64,000 nucleotides of DNA, from assembly GCA_005778225.1 (NCBI GenBank), contig SXPC01000069.1, positions 3,806-67,805 of the forward strand, written 5' to 3'. The DNA comes from Planctomyces sp. (lineage in GTDB: Bacteria > Planctomycetota > Planctomycetia > Planctomycetales > Planctomycetaceae). The notes beneath the pieces were generated by a model that ran no database searches, had not been told where the DNA came from, and saw only the letters and a list, made by a program, of their open reading frames with translations. Position numbers and translations under genes: made by a program. Below, in pieces: positions 19,978-59,193 of the stretch. The number at the start of each line of letters is the position of its first letter. The first letter of the stretch is position 1.

Positions 19978-20032
19978 AGTGGCAACGGTCGGATTCGAAC
20001 CGACGACCCGCGGCTTATGAGTCCGCTGCTCT
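19978..20032. repeat. attL: 55-bp direct repeat of tRNA 3' part
   Basis: Identical to 58919-58973. Confidence 0.95.
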
Positions 20033-40364: not shown

Positions 40365-42041
40365 TCAAATTTGCCCCTCTGGCGCAACGCGAGAGTTCAC
40401 CAGCTCCACAGCCATGCCGATCACTTCGCCGTCCCAGCGTTGCGACAGGCCAGCCACACAACCTGCCAGGTCGCCGGCCGGATCCGTCGGCAGAGCGGCC
40501 AGACAATCACGTCGCTGACCTTCAATCCATGTCCTCAAGCGTTCGCCGGTCGTGATATCTCCCAGCTTCTCCTGGACGATGCCGGCTTGCTGATCGAAGA
40601 TTTCGGCCACTCTGTCCTCAAACGCTGCCCGGGACAAAGACGATTTCGCCGCTCGCTCCAATGCCCGTACCTGACGTTGGACAAGGCCGCTGATCACTTT
40701 GCCCGTCAACCCGATGAAACCTTTATGCGCCCCGCGCACATTCTCGTCGTCGGATGGGGGCTTTTTGTCATTCGGTGGATCATTCGACGTTTTTGGTGCG
40801 TCGCTTGGTGCGACCTGCTTCCCGAAAATGGCCGCTGGCTTCGCTAGGTCGTCACCTCCTGGAAGTGGTGGCAGATCCTCGAGCGCACGGACTTCGTTCA
40901 AAGTCATGAACCCCGAGAAGATCGCGTTGCGGTGTGCCTGGTACCGCGACGTGATGTCCCCGCGTTCCAGACCGTCAATGTTGTAGCGGACGATGAACTT
41001 GCCGCGCTGACGACCTCGAAACAGCTTGCGGGCCATTTCCTGCTCGTCTCTGATCAGCCACGGCCGCATCGTGTGACGGGCGAAGTACCGGATCATGGCG
41101 TCGAGCGAATTGTTATTCGCATCGTCCATATGTCCGACCATCATCGGCGGACAGTTGAAGACGCACGTCGCGATTTTCTTCCCGTTGAAGACGCGGCTCT
41201 CCAACAGCTGAGCTTCGCCGAGGGGCATGGTGAAGTTTTTCAGATCGGAACCGCCTTCCAGGAGAAGCACTTTCCAGGCGTTCTCACCGTTGACCTGGTC
41301 CTCGATGTCGCCCTTTAATCGGTTGTAAGCGATGTCGCCCATTTCCTCCGGTACTGTGATCGCGATTGACGGCCGGGCTCCACTGTCGAAGAACTTCTTG
41401 ACGAAGCGTTCTTCGACTTTGCCCAGGCGAATGAGATCCCCCATGTAGCAGCGGATCGGAGAAACCCCGACGAGCCCGTTCGTCGTGAAGCCAGGGACGT
41501 GCAACATCTCATGTGAACCGTAGTGGGGTTTCACCTGGTTCGACGCGCGGTAATAGAGCAGATCGTCTTTGCCCTTCAGTGGCGTGATCGTCGACGGGTG
41601 CATCGGCGTTAATCTGGTGACTTCCTGACTCACCAGGTCCCAATCAATTCCGGTGTAGGAATTGCCCCATAAAGCGACGTGAGCTTGCCGCGCTTCCTGG
41701 AAGGCCATCGGGATCATGTCTGGGTGTGGTTCGAACGCAAGCAGATGTTTTACGGGATGCGATTCGACGTTGACCCACTTGCCAGCTTTCTTTTGCAGCA
41801 CATCGACGGGTAGCGATCCTTTCGTTTCGCTCATCACCTTCACGCAGGCATAGCAATCGGCCAGCTTCAGGGCCAGTTCCTCGTCGACCAGCTCCGGGAC
41901 CAAGGACTTACCCGCCGATTGGCGTGAGTGGTAATGACGCATGACCGTTTGCGCGAAGGTTTCCCCCGCGGCCCGCGACTCCAGGAAGCCACCGACGCGC
42001 CGCAGCTGGCGGCCGGCATAAGATTGAATCGTGCGAATCAT
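40365..42041 (-). CDS. HK97 family portal protein
   Basis: LWGNSY, GVSPI, FNCPP, MTLNEVRALEDLPP..GGD. Confidence 0.93.
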   Translation of the reverse strand: MIRTIQSYAGRQLRRVGGFLESRAAGETFAQTVMRHYHSRQSAGKSLVPELVDEELALKLADCYACVKVMSETKGSLPVDVLQKKAGKWVNVESHPVKHLLAFEPHPDMIPMAFQEARQAHVALWGNSYTGIDWDLVSQEVTRLTPMHPSTITPLKGKDDLLYYRASNQVKPHYGSHEMLHVPGFTTNGLVGVSPIRCYMGDLIRLGKVEERFVKKFFDSGARPSIAITVPEEMGDIAYNRLKGDIEDQVNGENAWKVLLLEGGSDLKNFTMPLGEAQLLESRVFNGKKIATCVFNCPPMMVGHMDDANNNSLDAMIRYFARHTMRPWLIRDEQEMARKLFRGRQRGKFIVRYNIDGLERGDITSRYQAHRNAIFSGFMTLNEVRALEDLPPLPGGDDLAKPAAIFGKQVAPSDAPKTSNDPPNDKKPPSDDENVRGAHKGFIGLTGKVISGLVQRQVRALERAAKSSLSRAAFEDRVAEIFDQQAGIVQEKLGDITTGERLRTWIEGQRRDCLAALPTDPAGDLAGCVAGLSQRWDGEVIGMAVELVNSRVAPEGQI

Positions 42042-43756
42042 AGCTCGAACTTCCTTAGTCCGCGTTTCAGGTACGGATTGAAAGTCACATCCGTCATATG
42101 AAGGAACTCCGAATACCCCATGAGCGTGGCGACGGCGCCGTCGATCTTGTCTTCACTGTGTTCTTTGTCTGGCATGACCAGTCCGGCCGCGTCCGTCTTC
42201 ACGACCAGGTTGTCGAAGAACCAGCCGAGCATTTCGTTGTCGCCGTGCAGTATTCGCCCGTTGCTCAAGCCGTCGGTAAAGCGTTTGATAGGAGCGTTAT
42301 ATTTCGCGACCGACTGCTGGAACCCATAGAACTTGATTTTCAAGTACTTCTGCACGTACATCCCGACTGCCTGCGCGTTGTTCTTGTCGCAGGCGATCGA
42401 GCGGACGTCGTATAGCTCTTTGCAGACGCGAAGCTGTTCGTAGAGGAAATCCGGATCGAATGACTTTCCTGGAATGACTTGCAGCCAGCCCTGTTTTATG
42501 AAAGTCCGGAATGGTTCCTGTTTAAGATTACGAGGGCCTTTCTCTGGCACCCATGCCCAGCATTTTACCGCGTACCTACGGTTCGGATCGTCTTCGGCTC
42601 CCAAGCCAAAAACTAAGGCAAGCGCAGCCAGGTCGTTATTCCAACCGAGATCAAGGCCAGCGGTACATTGCATCCCAATCAGCGACGGCAGCTTGCCGCT
42701 TCCGCATTTCCACATCTCCTCACTGATGATGCGTGCCTGCGATCGTACGCGGACGTTGCAGTAGTAACGCAGCAGGTTGAGCATTTCCAACGGATCATGT
42801 TCCGCCTTCCGGGCGATCGCCTCGATCGTCCGGATAAAGCAGGAGACCCCCAGGTTCGGCGAGGCCTTGTACCAACATGAGGAATCGAGCGGGTTGTCGT
42901 CAGCGTCGATCTCCGCCATGAAGATGAACCACTCATCATCCTGGACGACGCCACGAATCACCTTATCGCAGTAGGTGTACTGCTCATTCCAGAGCTTCGA
43001 GCGTTCGTTGCCGGCCGTCGTGATGAAGATCAGCAGCGACTGCGGATCTTTCCCCAGACCCGTGCGCAGCTTGTCGAGCAGCTTACGATGCTTCTCTTTC
43101 CATTCGTGCAGCTCGTCGACGACGACGGCGTGATAGCGGCCGCCGTCTTCTCCCGATCCATCCGCCCCAAGGCGGTTGATCATTCCATATTTGCCGATCT
43201 TTATCAGCCTGGTCTGTATGTCGCAGCGGTCGAGTAACTCTTGATGCTGTGCCACGAAGCGAGCGACTTCCGCATAGACGTACTTCGTCTGCTCTCGCTT
43301 GGTCGCAGCGAGGACGATTTCAGGCTCGAGCACGCGAGGCGAATCGAAGAACGCCAGAATCATGAGCAGCAGCGCGGCGAAGGGACTCTTGCCATTTCCC
43401 CGGGCCATCGTGATGAAGGCGAACAGGAACCGACGCATACCGTCGGACTTCCGTTTCCAGCCGAATAGCACCCAGACGATAAACTTCTGGAACGGTTCGA
43501 GCTTGAACGGCTTCCCACCTTTCTTGTCCAGATAGAACAGCGAGGCAAACGAGATCACCCGCGACGCTCGCTTGGCATCAAACCAATACAGGTACGCTTT
43601 CTTCGTGGACTTCTTCAAATCGCCCAGGTGACGAACGACCGCCAACCGGACCTTCTTCGCGACCGAGATCTTCCCGGCGACGACGTCTTCCATCCATTTC
43701 GTGACTTCCGCCTGGTGAGGGTACAGCTCGGCCGTCGGCTTCGTAGCGAATGGCAT
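42038..43756 (-). CDS. terL: Terminase large subunit
   Basis: MARGNGKS, VVVDELHE, ITTAG, GLDLG, KIDGAVA. Confidence 0.95.
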   Translation of the reverse strand: MPFATKPTAELYPHQAEVTKWMEDVVAGKISVAKKVRLAVVRHLGDLKKSTKKAYLYWFDAKRASRVISFASLFYLDKKGGKPFKLEPFQKFIVWVLFGWKRKSDGMRRFLFAFITMARGNGKSPFAALLLMILAFFDSPRVLEPEIVLAATKREQTKYVYAEVARFVAQHQELLDRCDIQTRLIKIGKYGMINRLGADGSGEDGGRYHAVVVDELHEWKEKHRKLLDKLRTGLGKDPQSLLIFITTAGNERSKLWNEQYTYCDKVIRGVVQDDEWFIFMAEIDADDNPLDSSCWYKASPNLGVSCFIRTIEAIARKAEHDPLEMLNLLRYYCNVRVRSQARIISEEMWKCGSGKLPSLIGMQCTAGLDLGWNNDLAALALVFGLGAEDDPNRRYAVKCWAWVPEKGPRNLKQEPFRTFIKQGWLQVIPGKSFDPDFLYEQLRVCKELYDVRSIACDKNNAQAVGMYVQKYLKIKFYGFQQSVAKYNAPIKRFTDGLSNGRILHGDNEMLGWFFDNLVVKTDAAGLVMPDKEHSEDKIDGAVATLMGYSEFLHMTDVTFNPYLKRGLRKFEL

Positions 43757-55299: not shown

Positions 55300-56376
55300 T
55301 CAAACGGCCTTGCGCCGTGTCTTCGTGAGAGCTGGGTTAACATCGCTGGAGATCTCCTCCAGGAAGCATTCCGGGACAGCGCAGTTCTCGATCGCTTCGC
55401 GAATCCGCTGCGTCGGGTTGTCGTAGAACTCCGCCGTCACGCCTTGGACGTAGTGAGCCGTGATCCAGTTGCCCAAGCCCGCTTCGATCGTGTTGTATCG
55501 CGTCGCCACCGTCTCGCGAAAATTCTTGAAGATGAGACGATCGGTGAAGCCGGCGGCCGGCAGAATGTCGCGCCGCCACGTTGCCCGCCAGCCTGTCTTC
55601 CAGGAACCGTTGCGACGCTGATGCCCCGACGTCGTGAAGCCCGGAAAAATCTTCGTCTCGGTCGATCGATACGATGGAAGCGACTGCAGCTGGCGAATGA
55701 CGACGTCCGTCAGCGGCAACGATTGCAGCTTCGAAGTCTTCTTTGCGATGATCCGGATATTCCGGTCCTGCCAGTGGATTTGATCCCAGCGCAGATTGAG
55801 CGTGTCGGTGGTCCGCTGCCCGTACGTGTAGAACATGCAGAGCAGGACCTGCCAGGACCGGCAACAATCTTTCTTCCTGGTTGGATAAGTCGCGAAGCGG
55901 CACGCATCCCACAGACGATCCATTTCGTCGTGTGTGATCGTCTCGCGTTTGATCTTCGGCGGGATCCGCACAAGCCGCGACTTTTTCCGATAGCCCAGCG
56001 AGGGAACCCGGTTGATCAGTTCGGCGTCGTGAGCAAACGAGAAGACGGCTTTGACCTCGCGCCAGATCTTGTTGATCGTCGACGGTGACAGCGGCTTGCC
56101 CGCCTTCGTTGTTGTCAACTTCAAACCATCGGAAAACGACCTGATGTCGTCCTTCCCATACGACCGAATATCGCGAACTCCGAGGATACGCTCGAAGTGC
56201 CTGATGGCATTGCGGTCCTCTTTGATCGACCCCGGCGACTGATCCTCCTCGATCTCTTTGAGAACGAAGTTTTCGTAATAGTCGGAGAGCGAAATCAGCG
56301 AATCGTCGGTGGTTTCGTGTTGTTCTTCGTCGCCCGTAAAGAGACGCAAAATATTGGGGCTGGCAGCAGCGATCAT
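55300..56376 (-). CDS. int: Tyrosine recombinase/integrase
   Basis: YGQRTTD..LRWDQI, KKT, FKNFR, AHY..VTAEFY. Confidence 0.88.
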   Translation of the reverse strand: MIAAASPNILRLFTGDEEQHETTDDSLISLSDYYENFVLKEIEEDQSPGSIKEDRNAIRHFERILGVRDIRSYGKDDIRSFSDGLKLTTTKAGKPLSPSTINKIWREVKAVFSFAHDAELINRVPSLGYRKKSRLVRIPPKIKRETITHDEMDRLWDACRFATYPTRKKDCCRSWQVLLCMFYTYGQRTTDTLNLRWDQIHWQDRNIRIIAKKTSKLQSLPLTDVVIRQLQSLPSYRSTETKIFPGFTTSGHQRRNGSWKTGWRATWRRDILPAAGFTDRLIFKNFRETVATRYNTIEAGLGNWITAHYVQGVTAEFYDNPTQRIREAIENCAVPECFLEEISSDVNPALTKTRRKAV

Positions 56377-56618
56377 GGCCCGGATCTTTCACCAGTTGAC
56401 TACGGCGCTCCATCTCCTCCATGGGAAATGACATGACTCCCTCGCAGTCTTCACTCACTCGAAGACTTGGGAATTCTTTAGCACGCAAACAGCAACGGAT
56501 CAGCGTTCATAGATGGCGAACGGATAGCGAGAACAATTAGACACGGGGACAGTCGGCATAACCGAAAGCCCCGTTCTAATCGAAGCACGGTGTGAGCAAT
56601 TCACCGCGCACAAAAAAA

Positions 56619-56715
56619 CTCGTAATCGTTCAACCAGCCAAAACCCCTTATCCGAGGGTGCGGCGGTAAGAATTCTGTTTAAGGAACTCCGACCTCCGCG
56701 GCTGAACGATACGAG
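56619..56715 (-). ncRNA. Putative three-way-junction antisense/attenuator RNA
   Basis: Long closing stem, two hairpins, followed by U7; G-U pairs favour the minus strand. Confidence 0.55.
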
Positions 56716-56794
56716 ATGAAACCCGATAGTTCTGAGCAGCAGCAAAACGATGTGACATACATCGTAGGGCGGAATAAGTAATTTGGTTGAGACC

Positions 56795-56822
56795 ACATTA
56801 CCTTCCGCCGCGACGGTGTCAA
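56795..56822 (-). promoter_or_regulatory. sigma70-type promoter of int/early operon
   Basis: TTGACA-16 nt-TAATGT. Confidence 0.65.
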
Positions 56823-56959
56823 CCCATATCTCGCGCAGAGCCGCGCGTGTCTGTCAGCAGGACAGTGAAGAAAAAGCAACTCGCTCCTAATGTGTGGTGG
56901 ATGGTCTCCCGCACTTTCTGCTCGTCAAATTCTCGTGTGAGTGAGATATAGAATGGACC

Positions 56960-57718
56960 TTAATTCAAATTTGCAGATAGGCGAAACAACATGGCGTTGG
57001 TTGCCTGCTGATCGACTAAAGTCATCGAGCCATCCGGATGATGAATTAGTATGGCCGCGGTTTTTCCCATCCGACGCTCCACCAGTTCGATACTTTGTTT
57101 TAGATCTTCCCTGGACTCAATCAGAATCGGGGCATAGCCTTCCAAACCCTGCTCTTCAATGGTCTGTCTGGCGATCTCTTCTGCGGGGAATACACAGATG
57201 CATAATGGGGGAAACTCACCGCCTCCCATAGACAGCACTCCCTCTTTCCTTCGCTCTTCATTTCGGAATCCCGCCAAGTAGCAGGGGAAACTCAGGCGAA
57301 CGGTTTCCGTCCCGTCGGAGTGTTTTTGCTGCAACGAAAATGAGTCCATCAACGATGCCAAGTAGGGTGGCAACGGACGCTCGACATACAGGAGCGAGTA
57401 CAGCGATTGTTCGATTGTGAGAAGTAGCCGATCCTTCGATTTATCAAAGGGATCGATGATGAGATGAGTTACTTGCGGAAACCGCATCATGACACTGGCT
57501 ATCCACCCGGTCAGGTCGCAGTGATTCTGGATTTCATAGAGAAACTCGTTGTTCCGAATCCGGGTCTCTTGACTTCGCGATGTGAAGAGGAAGACAGCAT
57601 GACGGTCTTCCCCTATGTTGTTGCTTGCAAACGGTGCACTTGTCAGAATCTCGGAAGAGTGTTCTTTCAATGTGACAAAGTACATCGGCACGCGCACGAC
57701 TTGCTGCGATTTTTTCAC
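56960..57718 (-). CDS. Accessory hypothetical protein
   Basis: GGAG RBS; 252 aa. Confidence 0.6.
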   Translation of the reverse strand: MKKSQQVVRVPMYFVTLKEHSSEILTSAPFASNNIGEDRHAVFLFTSRSQETRIRNNEFLYEIQNHCDLTGWIASVMMRFPQVTHLIIDPFDKSKDRLLLTIEQSLYSLLYVERPLPPYLASLMDSFSLQQKHSDGTETVRLSFPCYLAGFRNEERRKEGVLSMGGGEFPPLCICVFPAEEIARQTIEEQGLEGYAPILIESREDLKQSIELVERRMGKTAAILIHHPDGSMTLVDQQATNAMLFRLSANLN

Positions 57719-57795
57719 TTAAGCGGACTCCATTTCCAAATCTGACCGACGTTCGCTTCTTTTCCCCGTCGTCCATCCTAGTAAAAAGGTCAGCT

Positions 57796-58146
57796 TCACT
57801 GCCGACCCGCTAAACTCATTTGCTGTACCTTCCAGTCGAGGTAAGGCTGCAGGTCAACGATCATCTGGTGATAGCCCTCGGTCGTCTGGAGGCACTCGAT
57901 GTGTTGCCAGTGGTGCTGGTCATCGAAGTAGAACAGCGGGATTTTTGCCTTCGGAACTTTGACAGCGACTTTGCCTTGAGGAAGAGCGCGAGTGTCGCGA
58001 TTAGCGGCCGCTTCCAGTGTGGTTGCGTGTCCCAGTACGGTCATAATCAAGTGATCAAGGTCCTGATACTCTGGTCGCTCAACAGCCTCCGTGATGAGTG
58101 ACCAATCCAGATGGAAGACATGATTTTCGTATGCCAGGGTGACCAT
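57796..58146 (-). CDS. Accessory hypothetical protein
   Basis: GGAG RBS. Confidence 0.6.
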   Translation of the reverse strand: MVTLAYENHVFHLDWSLITEAVERPEYQDLDHLIMTVLGHATTLEAAANRDTRALPQGKVAVKVPKAKIPLFYFDDQHHWQHIECLQTTEGYHQMIVDLQPYLDWKVQQMSLAGRQ

Positions 58147-58245
58147 GGAAAAACTCCAACTCGGTCAAGCCAGCCTTGGCAGGTTGCTCGCCGCATTTTT
58201 GCACGCGATGCTTCCGTAAAACTCAAAGACAAACGGGCAACAAGA

Positions 58246-58641
58246 CTATTTTGGTTTGTTAGGTGGTCGGTGGTCGTCGTCGACGTACTCTTCCCTCGGT
58301 CCGAGTGTCGATTCCAGATCCTGCAAGTCTTTGTCATCGTCGCGAGTGACGAAGATCAGCGCTTCGATTGGAGCAATAACCGCCGTCTCACGGCCGGGAC
58401 GGCGGATATTCTCCATGTGTTCACGAGGCTGATGCGGAATATGAACCACTCGATCGACTCGGAAACAAAGTCCATGGTATGACGGACTCAAGTACTCGCC
58501 GACAACTGGCAATCGCGGAAACGGATAGACCGGATCTTTTAACGGTGGAACTTTGCATTCCTTCTCCGTCCAAGTCTTTGTTAATCGAACCATCGCATAG
58601 GTTCGAACTTCTGAGGCATACTCCGTGCGCTCTTCGCTCAT
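58246..58641 (-). CDS. Accessory hypothetical protein
   Basis: 131-aa ORF; FPRLPVVGEYL motif. Confidence 0.55.
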   Translation of the reverse strand: MSEERTEYASEVRTYAMVRLTKTWTEKECKVPPLKDPVYPFPRLPVVGEYLSPSYHGLCFRVDRVVHIPHQPREHMENIRRPGRETAVIAPIEALIFVTRDDDKDLQDLESTLGPREEYVDDDHRPPNKPK

Positions 58642-58748
58642 TTACTTCTCTTCCATGGGAAAGCAAATCCGTGGAGCTTCGCATCCCAGCGAAGTGGCAT
58701 AGCAGCCAAGATTGAAGGCGTCGTTCTTGACGCCAAACAAAAAGACAA

Positions 58749-58827
58749 ACGGGCAGCGAGAGATATCCAGGCTACTTATTCAAAAGCCCCGAGGAGAGTC
58801 ACCTATTCCCCGCTTCTCGCCGCCCGT
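58749..58827 (-). ncRNA. Putative three-way-junction RNA next to attR
   Basis: 13-bp closing stem ACGGGCGGCGAGA/TCTCGCTGCCCGT, GUGA-capped hairpin, second hairpin, U-rich tail. Confidence 0.45.
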
Positions 58828-58918
58828 GTGATCCTTTTTACGGTGGCGCAGCGGATTTATAGTCCGCAGCGCCAATCAGGTCGTATTTTCGAGAGTAAAG
58901 CCTTCCGCAGAAGGACTT

Positions 58919-58994
<76 letters not shown>

Positions 58995-59193
58995 ATCTGT
59001 GGAGATGGACACAAAACGAGACAATCAAATCGACTGTCGGTTCGCATCTGAGGCAGAATCTTAGTCAATCAGATCGTCTGATTCAATTTCGTACGCCCGG
59101 TTTTTCGGGTCTCCCTCCAAAATCTCGTCTGATCGTGATCCATCAGCAACGATCAGGCGATATGGAAAACAGCAGACGTCTTCAGATCAAAGC

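Follow-up and report, generated by a model that had tools for sequence, protein, structure and literature searches.

In IS10, a stable stem-loop RNA (RNA-OUT) pairs through its loop with the extreme 5' end of the recombinase mRNA (RNA-IN); it is cis-encoded, overlaps its target perfectly over about 35 nt and blocks translation. In another setting, the 3' external transcribed spacer of a host tRNA yields the RNA 3'ETS-leuZ, a sponge for small RNAs. The sib element of phage lambda is a cis-acting RNase III site that lies downstream of int and becomes detached from it on integration. To our knowledge, the control of integrase expression is known mostly via proteins (CII, Xis and integrase autoregulation) and lambda sib, and our literature searches found no small RNA reported as pairing with an integrase leader. 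The CI RNA of phage P4 and the C4 RNA of P1/P7 each derive, by RNase P processing, from the leader under their own control, and the genes that they regulate serve immunity or replication. Pairing of P4 CI is known to cause premature transcription termination (PMC4825925). That integrated elements might be transcriptionally coupled to tRNA promoters has been raised as speculation only (PMC2951348).

The element described here occupies positions 58749-58827 (minus strand) of the window, by which we mean the whole 64-kb stretch of Planctomyces sp. DNA that was analysed. In working principle it comes closest to P4 CI, P1 C4, IS10 RNA-OUT/RNA-IN, tRNA 3'-trailer RNAs and lambda sib, none of which fits it as a family. 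As in P4 CI and P1/P7 C4 (Rfam RF01695), a small compact phage RNA is predicted to pair through its loops with short leader sites of the same element, the target leader ends in a terminator as it does for CI, and the “address” is present in three copies, comparable to seqA, seqB and seqC. Unlike C4, the window has no match to RF01695, at the gathering score or at E up to 10, and unlike CI and C4 the RNA lies beside att, 2 kb upstream of its target on the same strand, is probably part of a host tRNA transcript and has the integrase leader as its target. With RNA-OUT/RNA-IN it would share the pairing of a stem-loop RNA with the 5' end of a recombinase transcript, but it is trans-encoded, uses 7-12 nt plus a short second segment, and is directed at a long leader whose terminator is far from the start codon. 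A base-pairing regulatory RNA that derives from a tRNA 3' trailer, as we suppose here, would recall 3'ETS-leuZ, except that here the prophage provides the trailer, which would be present only, or for the most part, while the prophage is integrated. As with lambda sib and with state-dependent promoters that span att junctions, such as ICEclc Pcirc, we propose that integrase expression is tied to the integration state, with recombination altering the neighbourhood of an RNA-level or promoter element at att; unlike sib, the element here lies upstream of int at the same prophage end and stays linked to it, and it is the upstream promoter that changes. Overall, the sequence comparisons set out below support antisense pairing.

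The window contains a single complete tRNA gene, a tRNA-Met (CAT) at 58920-58994 on the minus strand, identified with ARAGORN and Rfam. The 3' 54 nt of this gene plus one base make up an exact 55-nt direct repeat (repeat family D5; 19978-20032 and 58919-58973). The copy in the tRNA gene is the att core, rebuilt by the prophage, and the distal copy at 19978-20032, which represents the displaced 3' part of the tRNA, lies at the opposite prophage end. The two copies enclose 38.9 kb, with almost every long ORF on the minus strand; products encoded there include a large terminase (42038-43756), a DNA methylase and a DUF5131 protein. Beyond the copies lie host genes, for ferrochelatase and a Mur ligase on one side and for an alcohol dehydrogenase and a HAD hydrolase on the other. 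The 38.9-kb element is thus a prophage inserted in tRNA-Met, and since the att copies bound this block of phage genes, 58749-58827 is located within the prophage, with all phage genes co-oriented with it. On its phage side (19988-20049, minus strand), the distal att copy runs on into what resembles a degenerate 5' portion of a tRNA, and the whole stretch scores 32 bits against the Rfam tRNA model; attP of the excised circle would accordingly carry a near-complete pseudo-tRNA upstream of the antisense RNA.

A non-coding arm of 279 nt extends from the rebuilt tRNA-Met to the first phage ORF (start at 58641), which is on the same strand. Read along the minus strand, it contains a small hairpin (58914-58901), a 29-nt palindrome (58873-58845), an A-tract, the element itself (58827-58749), a U-rich tail (58748-58734) and a further hairpin (58734-58717). 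In a DNA homologue search the region 58200-58925 was single-copy in its own genome, with nothing significant in 200 same-family genomes and no phage record. The ORFs beside the element are orphans: neither viral contigs nor 398 genomes of the order yielded a relative of a 131-aa ORF (ORF131), and a neighbouring 116-aa ORF has one weak match.

The sequence-only reading had proposed a three-way junction with a 13-bp closing stem, which the RNAfold prediction for the minus strand reproduces: a closing stem P1 (58827-58815 with 58761-58749) encloses the arms P2 (58812-58790) and P3 (58789-58767), with an MFE of -38.8 kcal/mol (z = -4.03) that none of 200 shuffles equalled. The plus strand folds to only -28.6 kcal/mol, because one G.U pair of P1 becomes C.A. 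An arm described earlier as capped by a GUGA tetraloop is present, although the tetraloop belongs to a possible alternative fold and the MFE structure has a 9-nt loop instead. When the flanks are included (fold of 58734-58842), the A-tract at 58833-58839 can pair with the U-rich tail (58734-58748, 11 of 15 positions U) that directly follows the closing stem, lengthening the closing helix to about 22 bp. Rfam gave no match over 56200-59100, at the gathering score or at E up to 10, and none for six relatives. No close homologue of the element was found in the 200 same-family genomes or in the phage collection and, as there is no integrase above 48% identity either, the window's own fold is without covariation support. 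An exact 15-mer, TGCCCGTTTGTCTTT, occurs twice on the minus strand (58741-58755 and 58225-58239), each time with the start of a phage ORF 80-100 nt further downstream; the 3' end of the closing stem and the tail make up one copy (58741-58755), and the other has no surrounding stem (z = +2.6).

The closing stem, with 10 G-C pairs among its 13 bp, is followed by UUUGUCUUUUUGUUU, and the element resembles an intrinsic terminator in this GC-rich stem, the U-rich run and the upstream A-tract. It differs from one in that the stem encloses a branched, two-arm insert of 53 nt rather than a short loop of 3-8 nt and in that the U-run is interrupted, and a simple terminator scan did not return the site. 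Among the relatives, too, a U-run follows the element at some loci and is absent at others. At the ends of host tRNA genes the order is A-tract, GC-rich stem, U-run, a pattern that the junction follows, and the terminator of the host tRNA-Thr likewise has a large inner part. The closing stem, A-tract and U-rich tail together probably act as an intrinsic terminator that ends the RNA, and such a terminator would shield the co-oriented prophage genes from tRNA read-through. One alternative is that the element does nothing but terminate or insulate, stopping read-through from the tRNA promoter and giving the rebuilt tRNA its 3' end, with any complementarity to the leader coincidental; the likeness to the host tRNA terminators, including that of tRNA-Thr, speaks for it. 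Many terminators of the clade have RUGCGC after the U-run (e.g. host tRNA-Asp, tRNA-Glu and tRNA-Cys), and the same tail is found on integrase leaders.

The prophage encodes a tyrosine integrase of 358 aa (PF00589; 55300-56376, minus strand) whose homologues share 40-48% identity, searches of same-family genomes and metagenomes having returned nothing above 48%. Upstream of int is a 585-nt stretch without credible ORFs that holds a leader RNA, predicted at 56606-56788 (minus strand) on the basis of its fold (z = -4.15), an alignment with five relatives and the covariance model R2. A promoter-like site, TTGACA-16-TAATGT, precedes it at 56795-56822, and relatives have TTGACA-type promoters at the same position. 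In the leader, the 5' tail is succeeded by a hairpin and then by a domain whose long closing stem runs into U7 (56618-56612), and this long-stem terminator ends 230 nt before int. The tail, CCAAAUUACUUAUUC (56772-56786), is predicted to be unpaired and aligns with the stretch targeted in relatives. It can also find a partner in cis (GGAUAAG ... UUUUGG, 56638-56653, minus strand; duplex -12.2 kcal/mol), a hairpin just before the 3' strand of the terminator stem whose loop co-varies with the 5' tail in relatives.

An exact 9-nt complementarity between the element and the start of the leader had been noted from the window alone, and it holds at the positions given then: GAAUAAGUA (58781-58773) is the exact complement of UACUUAUUC (56780-56772), both on the minus strand and each occurring as an exact 9-mer once in the 64 kb. 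The target was said to follow an early transcription start, and it does correspond to about +8 to +16 of the leader, 15 nt after the TTGACA-16-TAATGT site and at the start of the 585-nt stretch. The match forms part of a longer antisense segment in P3, GAAUAAGUAGCCUGG (58767-58781, minus strand; local duplex -13.1 kcal/mol), which aligns in register with CCAAAUUACUUAUUC through nine Watson-Crick pairs, one G.U, two mismatches and three further Watson-Crick pairs. This parallels the two-part pattern of the relatives, in which a variable run is accompanied by UAGGY against RCCUA. A second segment, GGAAUAGGUGA in P2 (58799-58809, minus strand; duplex -13.8 kcal/mol), pairs with the same leader site using two G.U pairs, which is not expected if the element were a terminator only. 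One “address” is present in several copies, namely the tail, its cis complement in the terminator domain and one or two trans complements near att. The trans duplexes are only slightly stronger than the cis duplex. RNAcofold found no dimer gain, which is uninformative, as the program has no way of representing contacts between a loop and a tail within closed helices.

On its own, the 9-nt match of the window is close to chance level, being equalled in 9-13% of shuffles: of 300 dinucleotide-shuffled versions of the 79-mer, 26 reach a run of at least 9 nt against the leader and 40 against the whole intergenic region, and a 10-nt complementary run is present elsewhere in the neighbouring 3.4 kb (55300-58748). 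These figures suit the terminator-only explanation. With the target narrowed to the 23 nt that correspond to the targeted stretch of the relatives, 9 nt are reached by 62 of 5000 shuffles (p ~0.012). Once joined with the comparative evidence the match is significant; it is convincing because the relatives keep the complementarity with different letters. A better match than the 9-mer is found elsewhere on the same strand, where TTTCCCATGGARGAGA (58645-58662 vs. 56411-56428) is alike at 16 of 18 positions, including an exact 11-mer; its copies lie just upstream of the start codon of ORF131 and 35-50 nt upstream of that of int.

The relatives are integrase loci at 40-48% identity from same-family genomes and metagenomes. 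In most of them the order, all on one strand, is a tRNA gene, a structured non-coding stretch, 0.5-4 kb of other sequence, a promoter, the leader and int. The leaders are homologous: they have in common a promoter of the TTGACA type, short conserved motifs that flank a variable, A/U-rich 5' stretch, then a hairpin, and a 3' domain that has a long closing stem and U6-7 followed by AUGCGC. In 15 related loci, the structured element behind the tRNA can pair over 7-12 nt with the tail of its own leader, always at the same leader position, and the letters differ from locus to locus. The cognate run measures 9 nt in the window, 8 nt in L040, 7 nt in L043, 11 nt in L050, 7 nt in L053 and 11 nt in L039, which has a second run of 8 nt. 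With the covariance model R2, built on the 3' part of the leader, three more loci (L081, L082 and L083) were found in the complete genome G058, at three different tRNA-Leu genes, each of them followed by a more distant tyrosine integrase. The integrases of these islands are 59-69% identical, and each island has its own leader, its own att-proximal RNA and a different “address”, with private two-part matches of 12+7, 10+5 and 9+11 nt. A second group, at tRNA-Phe, tRNA-Asp and tRNA-Glu, differs from the first in both element and leader but obeys the same pairing rule, with runs of 12, 7 (11 with one G.U), 10, 10, 11 and 10 nt at six loci. Another locus, L036, has no match of 9 nt or more. One copy of the element, in G177:C9, is separated from its tRNA by a strong terminator and has no integrase or leader within 10 kb, and it was left aside as a likely remnant.

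The cognate pairs were compared with permuted assignments of elements to leaders, and distance from the -10 box served to define the target stretches; the target lies 12-16 nt after this box in the five loci measured (window, L040, L043, L050 and L053). The cognate assignment is the best of 120 permutations for five first-group loci and the best of 720 for the six second-group loci (sum 60 vs. mean 41). For nine loci with the window's type of leader, the cognate runs are 9, 8, 7, 11, 7, 11, 12, 10 and 11 nt, compared with a mean of 6.4 and a maximum of 9 nt for off-diagonal pairs, and 1 of 200,000 random assignments reaches the cognate sum, which is about what is expected from drawing the identity itself. 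The target stretches and -10 anchors of all these tests were chosen by eye once the first matches had been seen; relatedness among the loci can only make the tests conservative. The complementarity, whose lack of conservation the sequence-only reading had named as a refutation, is conserved as co-variation in 15 loci, G.U pairs on this strand included, and in the covariation check cognate pairs beat every other assignment. After these tests of cognate vs. non-cognate pairs, the plain terminator with a chance match was dropped as the whole story. Complementarity at the same leader position, in different letters, at 15 loci makes that explanation quite unlikely, and both functions could coexist in one element.

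The most common att-proximal element in the relatives is an uncatalogued RNA, here called type A, with a GGUUG P1, a GNRA-capped P2, a variable antisense stretch and UAGGYC. It was located at L040:9201-9489, L042:7950-8015, L043:9127-9192 and L063:10007-10193 and, in G058, at L081:6910-6986, L082:6979-7050 and L083:7156-7230; it was found only beside tRNA genes, often in two or three tandem copies, and shows compensatory changes. In an alignment of ten copies, which was fitted to the model and is biased towards structure, 90.7% of cells are paired, there are seven compensatory pairs and the covariation score is 0.419 vs. 0.147 in shuffles (0 of 500 as high). By these measures type A is a structured RNA. 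A dispersed, REP-like repeat was considered for this element and set aside, as the type A model R1 matches only loci that adjoin tRNA genes. The same model has no match in the window or in the window's genome, so that the junction of the window would be an analogue or a far-diverged member rather than a demonstrable homologue. It shares with type A the position between tRNA and leader, the strand, and a segment complementary to the tail of its own leader.

A second and larger RNA, type B, contains GAUGAGGCC, a GYAA-capped hairpin, a UUCG hairpin, an antisense stretch and a closing stem with U5-6. It was found 3' of tRNA-Phe, tRNA-Asp or tRNA-Glu in L038 and L049 (two copies each), L037, L041, L064 and L065, where it starts 13-35 nt after the tRNA, and its leader, which belongs to a different type, contains the antisense stretch a further time internally. 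Type B always ends in the closing stem and U5-6; in type A, some loci have a closing stem with a U-run and others a separate terminator after the element.

The complementary motif could instead work as DNA. GRAATARGT, present in the two arms and inverted in the leader, would then bind integrase or a repressor, as an att-arm site and an autoregulatory operator, with the hairpins incidental. The arm copies are direct repeats 28 bp apart and 150-190 bp from the crossover region, which is arm-type-like, and for KplE1 an integrase promoter that overlaps integrase binding sites is known (PMC2951348). Against this, where copies differ, G.U pairing accommodates the differences on the transcribed strand alone (L041, P2 of the window and several cis pairs), and the motif sits in predicted loops and junctions and in the predicted unpaired tail. 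Run length and register vary (7-12 nt) and the letters are unrelated among loci. There is no repeated motif common to both att arms, only 8-11-mers at chance level, and the integrases have only about 30 residues ahead of the core-binding domain and therefore no room for an arm-binding domain. The N-terminal parts of the integrases of the three G058 islands are about 50% identical, which leaves the question unaffected either way. The sequence-only reading had offered a DNA operator as an alternative; as the G.U pairs make sense only for an RNA on this strand, we consider it very improbable.

The non-coding arm does hold sites that are likely to act as DNA, and this counts in favour of the operator. 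A palindrome at 58845-58873 (minus strand), with arms of 10-11 bp and a 7-nt spacer (-20 kcal/mol, z = -4.9), mimics the anticodon arm of the tRNA, its arms matching tRNA nt 22-32 at 8-9 of 10 positions. Similar palindromes lie 3' of the tRNA in L039, L042, L043, L064, L065 and L063, each copying the 5' anticodon stem and the adjoining D-stem bases of its own target tRNA (7-10 of 10). The spacer is unlike the anticodon loop and the site is between the tRNA and the antisense RNA. Judging from this resemblance, the palindrome is probably an idealised extra core-type site for the integrase.

Returning to RNA pairing, its direction can be read in two ways. The leader is preceded by a promoter of its own, ends at a strong U7 terminator and can thus be a discrete small RNA of about 180 nt, the element is part of the 5' untranslated region of the first prophage gene, and P4 CI and P1 C4 act on leader sites. 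On these grounds the terminated leader could be the regulator and the element its target, its binding to the arms altering termination at 58734-58748 and thereby read-through from the tRNA into the ORFs at 58641-56960. The genes downstream of the element are not conserved, however, with ORF131 lacking a homologue in the 398 genomes, whereas integrase and leader are always present among the relatives, and the cis partner of the tail suggests that the leader itself is the switch. A regulatory leader acting on the element is therefore unlikely.

The element as the source of the antisense RNA, which we favour, raises the question of its promoter. The element starts 92 nt after tRNA-Met, and the terminator-like scan shows one weak hairpin in between, directly after the tRNA (58914-58901, minus strand), with a weak U-containing tail. 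Because of this short distance, the common strand and the non-coding nature of the att arm, the RNA is most likely a tRNA 3' trailer. Among the relatives the element is always downstream of a tRNA gene on the same strand and in several it starts 13-35 nt after it, which leaves no room for a promoter. A crude promoter scan found no consensus promoter upstream of the element in the window, L081 and L083; L081 and L083 have neither a consensus promoter nor a terminator between tRNA and element. Similarly, a crude scan of the far phage arm, which lies upstream in the excised circle, found no promoter that reads toward the core. The layout is consistent with a supply of the RNA by the host tRNA promoter, without proving it.

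At the level of sequence, the analysis demonstrates that the element is folded and that its complementarity to the leader tail is under selection, as follows from the co-variation. On this basis we regard it as rather probable that 58749-58827 is the core of a prophage antisense RNA, carried in the tRNA trailer, that pairs with the leader tail and controls termination ahead of int. Of the trans-acting RNA regulator that the sequence-only reading had suggested, antisense pairing is upheld by co-variation and a chance match is disfavoured, and the regulatory step is what we infer. That reading did not mention the terminator-like closing stem with its U-tail, the match of the second arm or the competing cis partner in the leader. 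The RNA would be made as the 3' trailer of tRNA-Met, and the top of P3, and also P2 by way of its G.U pairs, would bind the single-stranded 5' tail of a leader that presumably starts at the TTGACA-16-TAATGT site, 2 kb downstream of the element, and has its own terminator before int. Since the same tail can pair in cis inside the terminator domain of the leader, the trailer RNA may compete with this contact and so tip the leader towards termination or towards read-through into int. As for the direction, our guess is that a free tail disturbs its own terminator domain and permits read-through into int, and that the trailer RNA removes the tail, so that the leader would terminate and int would be switched off once the phage lies behind the tRNA promoter. 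A sensor of integration state (or of growth rate), in which an antisense RNA driven by the tRNA promoter takes the tail from its cis partner and turns int off or on, is a possibility that we regard as real but as somewhat short of probable.

If this is true, it would be an uncatalogued, RNA-based control of site-specific recombination, common to tyrosine-integrase elements of Planctomycetaceae-like bacteria. Mobile elements would obtain a direct read-out of the integrated state or, through tRNA-promoter activity, of growth rate. It would also provide a concrete reason for the frequent co-oriented insertion of such elements just downstream of tRNA genes, a question that has been raised and left open (PMC2951348). 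Owing to the private addresses of 7-12 nt, several islands in one genome, e.g. the three at tRNA-Leu genes of G058, could be controlled independently, and the co-varying “address” makes the idea directly testable by compensatory mutations. At least three RNA families that are absent from Rfam are added by the finding.

Two further tRNA-linked arrangements were observed. The tRNA-Phe islands carry an initiator-like tRNA-Met just 3' of the integrase gene (L037:5938-6009, L038:867-940 and L041:202-275), which is presumably encoded by the element. In the window's own genome, the tRNA-Ser genes at C113:17139-17228 and C115:19805-19890 are followed by near-identical non-coding stretches of 130 nt, with integrase genes nearby, and these stretches may represent another tRNA-linked element family.
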